NCBI GenBank assembly: GCA_038534095.1
Contig: JBCAXK010000005.1
Location: 1-62,839 of the forward strand
DNA length: 62,839 nucleotides
Source of the DNA: Chlamydiota bacterium
Lineage (GTDB): Bacteria > Chlamydiota > Chlamydiia > Chlamydiales > SM23-39
Direction: 5' to 3'
Part shown: positions 20,713 to 22,743 of the stretch, in pieces
Layout of the letters: every line of letters starts with the position of its first letter
How positions within the stretch are numbered: position 1 is the first letter of the stretch
The notes under the pieces: generated by a model
Told to the model about the DNA's origin: nothing
Database searches by the model: none
Seen by the model: only the letters and a program-made list of their open reading frames with translations
Made by a program: the position numbers and the translations under genes

Positions 20713-20733
20713 TTGAACCCACATTCCGCGCCC
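20713..20733. repeat. left terminal inverted repeat
   Basis: TTGAACCCACATTCCGCGCCC. The reverse complement of the right repeat is TTCAACCCACATTCCGCACCC. Confidence 0.65.
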
Positions 20734-20844
20734 CCTCCGCAAGGGGTATAAGAAAATCTGATTTTTTTAGAGGAACTGAAATGGAAGAGATCATTTTTGT
20801 CCTTTCTGGTTTAAACTCCAACTTTTTATTGTGTAGGAGATGTT

Positions 20845-21290
20845 ATGGAAGAGGCGTACAAGAGCAAAAATTTCGACCATCTAGGGATTGTGAGTGTTGT
20901 GTGTGAAGAGATGGGGCCTTCAGGAAACGGTAGATCAGTTGATTCCTTCTGATCCTCAGATGGCCATGAGCTTGGGTGAATGCCTAAAATTGATGCTACT
21001 CAATGGATTTGGGTTTACGTCTAGACCCCTTTATTTAGCAGCACAATTCTTTAAGTAGACCGTTAAACAGGCTACTAGGGAGAGATTGTGGCCACGTGAT
21101 CCATGACGACCGTTTGGACAGAGCCTTAGATCGTTTTTACGATTTTGGCTCCGATAAGGGAGATGAGAGCAAAAAGCGTTACAGAATACATTCCTTGAAG
21201 AAGAATCGGTGTCGTTTGAGAAATCGCGTAACCACATTGAACCCATGGCGCTCCAAAGTCCGCTCAAGGTGGTCGCAGAAAGCATAAAAA
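20845..21290 (+). pseudogene. transposase N-terminal domain fragment (IS1634-like, DUF4277-type), frameshifted
   Basis: ATG 20845 follows AGGAGA. It is readable only across three frames: MEEAYKSKNFDHLGIVSVVCEEMG / LQETVDQLIPSDPQMAMSLGECLKLMLLNGFGFTSRPLYLAAQFFK(TAG) / IHDDRLDRALDRFYDFG. Confidence 0.7.
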
Positions 21291-21480
21291 GAAGAGCAAA
21301 GCCTATTCCACAAAGTCCTTTCGGAAGTACATTCAGTAAAACCTCAGAAAACACCGTTTCGGTAGATTGGGCAACAAATCCCTTGTTCTATCATTCTAAC
21401 CTCTCTAGCTTTGCCTAATTAAGATCCCTTTTTCTCTAACTACCGAGGATGATTTCATTGAAAGTTACGAAAAACTTAAA

Positions 21481-21500
21481 GGATTTTTTTAAAAAAATCC
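21481..21500. repeat. perfect 20-bp palindrome
   Basis: GGATTTTTTTAAAAAAATCC, about 75 nt downstream of the dioxygenase stop. Confidence 0.6.
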
Positions 21501-21572
21501 GCAAGAGTCCTTTGTGAAATTTAATGCTAGGAGTCTCGATAGGTATGCCTCTCTAACGTCTTAGCCAGTCTT

Positions 21573-22448
21573 CTATCTAAGCGCTCTTTTTACGCAGGGA
21601 ACGCCAGCTTTCCACGGAGCTGGACGCGCCAAAGAAGAGTTCTTGTGGAACACATCATTTGTGCAGTTTCCGGGATAATTTTCATGGTTGGCTCCGTAAA
21701 TGCAGTAGCCAGTCAGAAGAGCTCTCCTAGATATATTTGAGCGATTCTCCCCGCTCCAGTGGGTAATTTGCGGGTGAATAAACAGAAGGTCTCCCGGCTC
21801 CATAATGATCGGAAAGGGATCCTTGTCTTGGGATTGGTAGCTGCGAGGGTCGATGTACAAACAGCCATTCTCTTCGGTCATAGGATCAATCGCTAAAAGA
21901 CAAACTGCGTAACTTACTTTCTCTCCTATGTCTTGCCAGTTAGGATCAAAATATTTGCGATGTTCTAAGTCTTGATGTTTGTTAAACGAGACACCATCTC
22001 CTGGAAGTTTGGGATGGAACTGGCAGATCAGTTGCTCTAAGCATGTTGTATCCAATAAAGCAAAGTAGGTATGGAGCATCTTTTTCGAGCGTAGTACCTT
22101 TTGTAACGTGGGCGCGATGGCACAAACGCCCACAATTCTTTGGATAGCGATGGGTTTTCCCTGCCTTTTGAGGAACACAATGTGTGAGCCTTCTAGCAAA
22201 GCTGTTTGTTCCTCGGCTTGATAAGGGTAATCTTCTAAAGCAGAGAGGACTTTTTCTAATAAGAGGGTGCTGTTTGTATTCAGGAGTTGTAAAGTGGAGG
22301 GGGCAATAGCCTGTTTTTTAAGGAGGTATCCTGTTCTATAAAACTGTTCGATGTCATCATTGGTGCAGTAGGAAGCATCTAAGGGAATAAGTAAAAGAGA
22401 AAGCATCACAAGTAATGCCTGACGATAGGAATGAAAAATCATGGCCAT
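21573..22448 (-). CDS. PhyH-family Fe(II)/2-oxoglutarate dioxygenase with signal peptide
   Basis: The 291-aa product has a hydrophobic leader LLVMLSLLLIPLDA. PhyH-like blocks are FYRTGYLL, FNKHQDLEH, VCLLAIDPMTEENGCLYIDPRSY and GDLLFIHPQITHWSGENRSNISRRAL (HxD...H facial-triad pattern). Confidence 0.8.
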   Translation of the reverse strand: MAMIFHSYRQALLVMLSLLLIPLDASYCTNDDIEQFYRTGYLLKKQAIAPSTLQLLNTNSTLLLEKVLSALEDYPYQAEEQTALLEGSHIVFLKRQGKPIAIQRIVGVCAIAPTLQKVLRSKKMLHTYFALLDTTCLEQLICQFHPKLPGDGVSFNKHQDLEHRKYFDPNWQDIGEKVSYAVCLLAIDPMTEENGCLYIDPRSYQSQDKDPFPIIMEPGDLLFIHPQITHWSGENRSNISRRALLTGYCIYGANHENYPGNCTNDVFHKNSSLARPAPWKAGVPCVKRALR

Positions 22449-22497
22449 GGTTTTACGAAAAAGCGTTATTTGTGTCTACAAGAAATTTTTTGATAGC

Positions 22498-22525
22498 TGC
22501 CTGGCATCAACTCCGATGCCAGGCA
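22498..22525. repeat. perfect 11-bp stem hairpin at the dioxygenase/transposase-fragment junction
   Basis: TGCCTGGCATC aactcc GATGCCAGGCA. Confidence 0.6.
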
Positions 22526-22720
22526 CTTGGGAACTTTTTGTTCGTCGGTGACTCCTTGAAATCAGAATTGGCCAACTACAAGGAACAGCAGTGTGTGGAA
22601 AGAGGGTTTCGATTTTTAAAAGACTCATCGTTCATGACCTCGTCCGTCTTTAAACGTGTTCATCTTTATATACTTGCGATACTAGGCCCCCCTTGTGAAA
22701 AAATTTACGCTTCAACATAA
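22526..22720 (+). pseudogene. transposase C-terminal fragment (IS1634/IS4 YREK-region signature)
   Basis: Reads LFVGDSLKSELANYKEQQCVERGFRFLKDSSFMTSSVF and then a short aberrant tail ending 3 nt before the right inverted repeat. Confidence 0.6.
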
Positions 22721-22722
22721 AA

Positions 22723-22743
22723 GGGTGCGGAATGTGGGTTGAA
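22723..22743. repeat. right terminal inverted repeat
   Basis: GGGTGCGGAATGTGGGTTGAA, which matches the left repeat at 19 of 21 positions in inverted orientation. Confidence 0.65.

Follow-up and report, generated by a model that had tools for sequence, protein, structure and literature searches.

In this work we analysed a segment of a contig from an uncultured marine member of the Chlamydiota, in which a gene for a PhyH-type Fe(II)/2-oxoglutarate dioxygenase lies between the two ends of an insertion sequence (IS); the window is this entire contig, of 62,839 bp, and its source run (X1) is a marine metagenome. The segment, at 20718–22738 (2021 bp), is one decayed, non-autonomous element of the IS1634 family. 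Very probably it is a single IS unit that was gutted of its transposase core, holds the PhyH gene as cargo and reached its present site by one insertion into the relic of an IS630-family element. The data show how the unit is built, that its two ends stem from a single insertion, that the core has been lost and that the cargo is intact. A preliminary description, made from the window sequence alone, had already placed the dioxygenase gene physically between IS ends, and this holds: both ends belong to one IS1634-family element, whose catalytic DDE core is gone. Relatives of the IS were collected by scanning species-representative genomes with the transposase N-terminal domain, which yielded 32 loci; when the repaired transposase ends were used to search proteins, fragments alone were retrieved, and the full-length relatives all came from the genome scan. 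To refine the breakpoints we used Logan unitigs from two runs, the source run and a plastisphere metagenome (X2).

The limits of the unit are set by its terminal inverted repeats. These had been described as 21-bp arms (20713–20733 and 22723–22743), which are indeed complementary at 19 of 21 positions, but the true repeat is 16 bp long (CCCACATTCCGC[G/A]CCC, 15 of 16 positions matching between the arms). Its left copy lies at 20718–20733 on the plus strand (CCCACATTCCGCGCCC) and fits the family end consensus C-----YT, and its right copy, at 22723–22738, coincides with the ends of related copies. The repeat pattern occurs at only these two places in the window, with 0 matches expected by chance. 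At least 12 related IS copies terminate at CCCACATTCCGCACCC / GGGTGCGGAATGTGGG, with unrelated bases outside, and in the source metagenome the flanks of other IS copies diverge directly after 22738, which fixes the length of the inverted repeat at 16 bp. The end of the unit itself, which reads CCCACATT..., is common to at least 12 relatives and agrees with the same C-----YT consensus. Abutting these termini is a perfect 5-bp direct repeat, TTGAA, whose left copy (20713–20717) adjoins the terminus set by the related copies and whose identical right copy (22739–22743) begins where the flanks of other IS copies diverge. The earlier statement that no target-site duplication is visible was thus wrong, TTGAA having been mistaken for part of the inverted repeat because it is nearly its own reverse complement. 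By an estimate from base composition, a 5-bp direct repeat of this kind would arise by chance with a probability of about 0.001. IS1634-family elements have C-----YT ends, duplications of 5–6 bp and a size of 1500–2000 bp (PMC2266710), and the duplication found here falls within the family range. Duplications of 6–7 bp flank related copies, for example ATACCAA (L009), CTGCTG (L013) and TTATTA (L026), and perfect 6-bp repeats flank 12 of 13 Pseudoalteromonas copies. A side observation concerns two IS copies (L007 and L008) that lie inverted, about 81 kb apart, on one contig: the left flank of the former (TTATAG, 4824–4829) and the right flank of the latter (CTATAA, 6621–6626) are reverse complements of each other, which looks like the trace of an IS-mediated inversion that split one duplication.

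The DNA on the two sides of the unit was once continuous. On the right, the minus strand from 22804 to 22739 encodes LSKFANERVLYNKYYERFSAFQ, the probable C-terminal relic of an IS630-family (DDE_3) transposase annotated at 22739–22815, with 73–77% identity to the IS630-type transposases of L042, L047 and L049 (E-values down to 3e-8); the C-terminal match spans 22–26 amino acids (aa) and extends to many IS630-type transposases at 65–77% identity. On the left, the terminal part of the same relic, which is the insertion target, occupies 20669–20717 (minus strand), with its outer terminus TATACCTA at 20669–20676. In silico removal of the unit and one TTGAA yields a minus-strand frame without stops, which can be aligned over the junction with the IS630-type transposase C-termini of at least 15 relatives (...FSAFQ-LKVYVTQFF, the hyphen marking the junction, against ...FSCFREAVFGFL/F). 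The IS630 terminus (...TAGGTATA at 20669–20676) stands in the expected orientation 40–50 bp beyond this junction; IS630 relatives end in ...GGTATA, and the left end of the L042 element (9106–9133) matches window positions 20669–20696 at 20 of 28 bases, again in the predicted orientation. A tblastn search of plasmids with the relic gave noise only. Taken with the rejoining IS630 frame, the TTGAA duplication shows that a single insertion into a continuous target brought in the two ends of the unit. The relic lies directly after the valS stop codon and is split by the IS1634-type unit, and the last ~25–40 codons of its transposase seem to have been deleted.

Between these ends, what remains of the IS is best read against its complete relatives, which are 1741–1791 bp long and encode one transposase of 531–538 aa (L002, L003, L005, L007–L009 and L012), with one longer complete copy of 2003 bp (L013). 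A search for intact copies had been proposed as a check; such copies place the inverted repeats and the transposase pieces in one and the same element. The left arm (20718–21155, plus strand) corresponds to IS positions 1 to ~455, 20718–21156 being collinear with positions 1–455 of L002 and L003 at 66–67% nucleotide identity, and it encodes transposase aa 1–105 at 20845–21155. These 105 aa carry the DUF4277 domain (Pfam PF14104, E 1.2e-28; NCBIfam NF033559, E 1.4e-11). As first described, this N-terminal remnant is of IS1634 type, frameshifted and starts at 20845; its end is at 21155, and not at ~21290. Two frameshifts, near 20916 and 21053, distribute aa 1–105 over the three frames in which tblastn detects them. 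The C-terminal piece with the VERGFRFLKD signature ('...NYKEQQCVERGFRFLKD...'; NF033559, E 1e-5) was likewise correctly recognized as lying on the same strand as the N-terminus. The right remnant that contains it is secure only from 22568 and has an internal deletion, between 22651 and 22652, that had been overlooked. Its first part (22568–22651, plus strand) encodes transposase aa ~404–431 (LANYKEQQCVERGFRFLKDSSFMTSSVF), and its second part (22652–22738, plus strand) holds the last ~22 transposase codons, the stop codon at 22718–22720 and the right inverted repeat. At the DNA level, 22573–22651 corresponds to IS positions ~1357–1434 and 22668–22738 to the final ~70 bp, and the right arm as a whole covers IS positions ~1350–1434 and the last ~87 bp; at the protein level (tblastn), only aa ~399–441 and 514–533 survive beyond aa 1–105. 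The clean deletion of ~250 bp at 22651/22652 takes out aa ~442–513, so that this copy, besides its two frameshifts, lacks aa ~106–403 and ~442–513. An autonomous element of the family would be 1500–2000 bp long with one intact transposase gene; the unit is 2021 bp long and its DDE core is absent.

Other copies of the same IS in the X1 and X2 unitigs, ~90–95% identical to the window, show what the decay has removed. They do without the extra base of the window near 20916 and carry two bases that the window is missing after 21052, they run past 21155 as '...CTGTTTGCTGCGTTAGCAGGAAAAGCA' (LFAALAGKA, an intact transposase), and from 22568 they match the window again and bridge the gap at 22651/22652. 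Protein-level hints that the right arm may reach left to ~22472 find no support in these near-identical copies, which diverge at 22568. The retained arms do not overlap, have the same orientation and fit one IS copy, and no relic of an inner inverted repeat was found inside the unit at 11 or more of 16 matches. Apart from the window, an IS of the same family in a long-read Chlamydiae metagenome-assembled genome (MAG; L010, 5867–8229) is interrupted by a complete IS21-type element with istA (433 aa) and istB (265 aa) genes.

The foreign segment is bounded by the points at which the other IS copies part from the window (21155) and meet it again (22568), and so occupies 21156–22567. It comprises 1412 bp in place of the ~0.9-kb DDE core and resembles none of the intact IS relatives at the protein or the DNA level. 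The preliminary description had given this middle part as ~1.2 kb, which is too short, and had rightly assigned to it an intact 291-aa open reading frame on the minus strand (21573–22448). That this is a PhyH gene was corroborated by the Pfam profile PF05721 (E 3.6e-15, 57 bits against a cut-off of 22), and none of the intact IS relatives contains a PhyH gene, so the antisense frame is not a canonical part of the IS. The HxD...H...R motif is kept, with H157, D159, H229 and R240 in invariant or nearly invariant alignment columns, HxD...H being the iron triad and R240 the 2-oxoglutarate-binding arginine. The length of the protein and its hydrophobic, signal-peptide-like N-terminus agree with those of its homologues. 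An AlphaFold (AF2) model (pLDDT 90, pTM 0.85) matches the folds of SnoK/SnoN, GriE, PHYHD1, MysH and PhyH with TM-scores of 0.55–0.63, at 11–19% identity to the solved structures, a marginal sequence similarity. The cargo gene is intact, and the dioxygenase that it encodes is probably functional and probably exported. A weak tblastn match between transposase aa 430–462 and the PhyH frame (E 0.008, database of 2.3 kb) was dismissed as chance, since it coincides with a conserved PhyH segment.

In the 417 bp downstream of PhyH, codon scores are borderline on both strands, and tblastx and blastn searches against all loci and the window, as well as Pfam and NCBIfam scans, were all empty. Two long open frames overlap there, at 21167–21415 on the plus strand and 21156–21387 on the minus strand, with codon scores between those of genes and those of antisense frames. 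The plus-strand frame found no real homologue in a HMMER scan of 1.84 billion representative proteins, its single match, a Ser-rich repeat protein, being regarded as compositional; the minus-strand frame had no match in Pfam or NCBIfam, the only libraries used for it.

The arms of the unit are repeats present at 2–4 times the single-copy depth (47–80 in X1), where assemblers tend to misjoin, and the contig might in principle be a chimera that joins IS repeats from different places, the shell then not being a real molecule. We regard this as the least probable of all explanations. The frameshifts and the deletion of the arms are private to this copy, both junctions are spanned at flank depth by unitigs that equal the window sequence (21121–22342 and 22340–22619), and a misjoin would not yield a target-site duplication together with a continuous target. 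The depth of PhyH in X1 (20.6) is that of a single-copy gene when compared with its flanks (20.8 and 16.9). The excess depth of the arms corresponds to two to three further IS copies per genome-equivalent depth in X1, which read as intact transposase; this is a metagenome-level figure and is not tied to the host genome.

In the reading that we favour, the history of the unit is as follows. An older IS630-family element sat between a hypothetical gene and valS, and one transposition event put both IS1634-type ends into its 3' end, creating the TTGAA duplication. About 0.9 kb of the IS, including the whole DDE core, has been replaced by 1412 bp of unrelated DNA with PhyH, and intact IS copies in the same metagenome could supply transposase in trans. 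With regard to the entry of the cargo, core replacement within one IS copy, here or before arrival, is the most likely route, and we hold it with somewhat better than even confidence; the gene may have been inside before landing, or it may have taken the place of the core afterwards. The preliminary description had left the choice between one IS with a replaced core and two flanking copies that each decayed to their outer ends. The single-element character of the ends stands, and the second option has to be divided in two. If two IS copies had inserted independently beside a resident, native PhyH gene and each had eroded to its outer end, the GC content and codon usage of PhyH, typical of the genome, would be readily accounted for. 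Yet the outer flanks share one 5-bp duplication and rejoin into one IS630-type frame, PhyH homologues elsewhere are never beside valS and have no common neighbourhood, relatives with a syntenic pknD-nudix-valS block are without PhyH there, and the sister strain described below has no PhyH at all. Since both ends come from a single insertion, two independent insertions around a resident gene are excluded, save for a very small residual probability.

A composite transposon is harder to set aside. Two full IS copies in direct orientation would have flanked PhyH elsewhere, moved with it as a unit by their outer ends and then lost their inner halves through two deletions, a course of events that fits both the duplication and the continuous target. 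Every step would be a well-known process, and deletions are evident both in the unit (250 bp at 22651/22652) and in the sister strain (2185 bp). Against it, inner inverted-repeat relics are absent, the arms are complementary and non-overlapping as for one copy, and at least five events would be needed, including two large deletions that both spared PhyH. Taken together, the non-overlapping arms and the absence of inner ends mildly favour a single-copy origin, and we consider the composite origin rather unlikely, clearly behind core replacement in one copy.

Several observations weigh against the reading of the unit as a gutted IS with PhyH cargo that arose by one insertion into the IS630 relic, or against its details. 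We can point to no mechanism for the core replacement. The target-site duplication measures 5 bp, as against 6–7 bp in the closest relatives, the alignment of the rejoined IS630 frame needs a 2-residue indel exactly at the junction, and Pfam and NCBIfam detect nothing in the short IS630 relic. The 2185-bp gap of the sister strain also removes 121 and 32 bp of flank, and the idea that PhyH is expressed by read-through (see below) rests only on negative consensus scans for promoters and terminators. Finally, one copy of the cassette was found, the one in the window, across the window, the source metagenome and all indexed public runs; with only this copy known, its mobility as a cassette is hypothetical.

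The arrangement had been taken for a footprint of horizontal acquisition of the dioxygenase gene. This is plausible, and the GC and codon comparison that was proposed as a check shows a gene typical of its contig. The GC content of PhyH (0.444), its third-position GC (GC3, 0.459) and its synonymous codon fit (−1.084) lie inside the contig ranges (0.437±0.022, 0.423±0.042 and −1.095±0.047, respectively) so that nothing in its composition points to a foreign origin. Its closest homologues, chlamydial and verrucomicrobial, reach 53% identity at most, and exact look-ups of the PhyH sequence found no record. At seven loci with PhyH homologues no conserved neighbourhood or IS association was found, and none of the seven adjoins valS; a 531-aa neighbour gene at one of them (L125) proved not to be a transposase. 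No plasmid-borne homologue was found. Comparison with a related strain, also suggested at the outset, was possible with a 4778-bp contig from the plastisphere metagenome (L039; ValS 99% identity, 98.7% nucleotide identity). PhyH and the whole segment are absent from it, and the site is not a clean empty one: L039 (3454–3464) joins window position 20585 to 22771 and skips the 2185 bp between imperfect 11-bp repeats (TG[CG/TA]CAAAACT), while retaining part of the IS630 relic. It was thus rejected as an empty site and does not date the insertion; L039 is, from its sequence, a deletion derivative, in which the shell may or may not have been present earlier. No PhyH at 85% identity or more was found in X2, where intact copies of the IS do occur, so the gene is strain-specific. 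The sister strain without PhyH is the only positive hint of horizontal acquisition.

The expression context of PhyH is that of a gene downstream of valS (22829–25609, minus strand), which is on the same strand with 380 bp between them. Consensus scans found no sigma-70-like promoter on the PhyH strand and no terminator-like site between valS and PhyH, and for these reasons transcription of PhyH by read-through from valS is plausible. A very stable GC-rich hairpin with an 11-bp stem (22498–22525; dG of about −25 kcal/mol, z −4.6 to −5.3), which occurs once in the window, is found 50 nt ahead of the PhyH start codon, in the 119-bp interval that separates this codon from the right IS arm. At 73 nt past the PhyH stop codon, a perfect 20-bp A/T-rich palindrome (21481–21500, GGATTTTTTTAAAAAAATCC; dG −10 to −11.5 kcal/mol, z −2.6 to −2.9) may act as a weak bidirectional terminator, and the consensus scan gave one weak terminator-like site 210 nt past the stop. 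No RNA run holding the PhyH gene was found, and no Rfam family in the region.

The pknD-nudix-valS block occupies 22829–28904 on the minus strand of the window, relatives with the same block have no PhyH at this place, and the best non-self matches of ValS are chlamydial MAGs at 63% identity. The window also encodes an OpuA-type ABC system and two Na:alanine symporters; the latter (459 and 473 aa) are adjacent, slightly overlapping paralogues at 16112–18882 that represent a tandem duplication, and a distant relative (L041) has at least one copy, a 459-aa gene beside a cut open reading frame aligning to the same window stretch. An 1878-aa frame on the minus strand (35937–41573), with a counterpart in a relative (L040) that has UvrA domains, seems to correspond to the double-length UvrA that chlamydiae typically have.

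Among known systems, IS1634/IS1549-type elements (ISfinder) share with the unit the DUF4277 N-terminus, the NF033559 C-terminal motif, the C-----YT ends and a 5-bp duplication; they differ from it in that the unit lacks the DDE core, owes its 2021 bp to the cargo and, judged from its sequence, would be incapable of self-transposition. Composite transposons of the Tn5/Tn10 type likewise have a gene between stretches of IS sequence and one duplication around the whole, but the unit has one set of complementary arms without inner ends, and not two IS copies. The cargo resembles the PhyH-family dioxygenases (human PHYH, PHYHD1, SnoK/SnoN, GriE and MysH) in its PF05721 domain, its HxD...H and Arg residues and its fold, and differs from them in its membership of a clade of chlamydial and verrucomicrobial proteins whose N-terminus resembles a signal peptide. 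Among known concepts the unit comes nearest to the mobile insertion cassette (MIC), whose architecture it matches. MICs are represented by MIC231 of Bacillus cereus, derived from IS231 (IS4 family), and by the Tn3-type MICs of Xanthomonas. As in these, IS-type inverted repeats enclose an unrelated passenger gene, the transposase is absent, a target-site duplication flanks the whole and cognate intact IS copies are found in the same community. Unlike MICs, the unit has long arms (438 and 171 bp) that still hold transposase coding fragments, which gives it the look of a recent deletion derivative and not of a streamlined cassette; it is also known as a single copy, and its mobilisation in trans is hypothetical.

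IS1634 is an IS4-related family, and in a 2008 survey of IS4-family elements passenger modules were unseen outside the IS231 group (PMC2266710). The unit could also be a working IS1634-family cassette, mobilised in trans by the co-occurring intact copies and moving a secreted PhyH-type dioxygenase between marine chlamydiae, a possibility that we consider quite unlikely. Such a cassette would, to our knowledge, be the first passenger-carrying derivative described for the IS1634 family. For the rest, we are dealing with standard nested, decaying mobile elements in an intergenic 'graveyard', and with a fairly ordinary capture of a gene by mobile DNA. In either case the locus offers a concrete, datable example of how an environmental chlamydia gained or lost an accessory gene in association with an IS, and shows that the IS1634 family is able to yield cassette-like derivatives. 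We know of few documented routes of gene gain in the obligate intracellular chlamydiae, and a working cassette would open an IS-borne one for gene flow, in a phylum poor in such routes.

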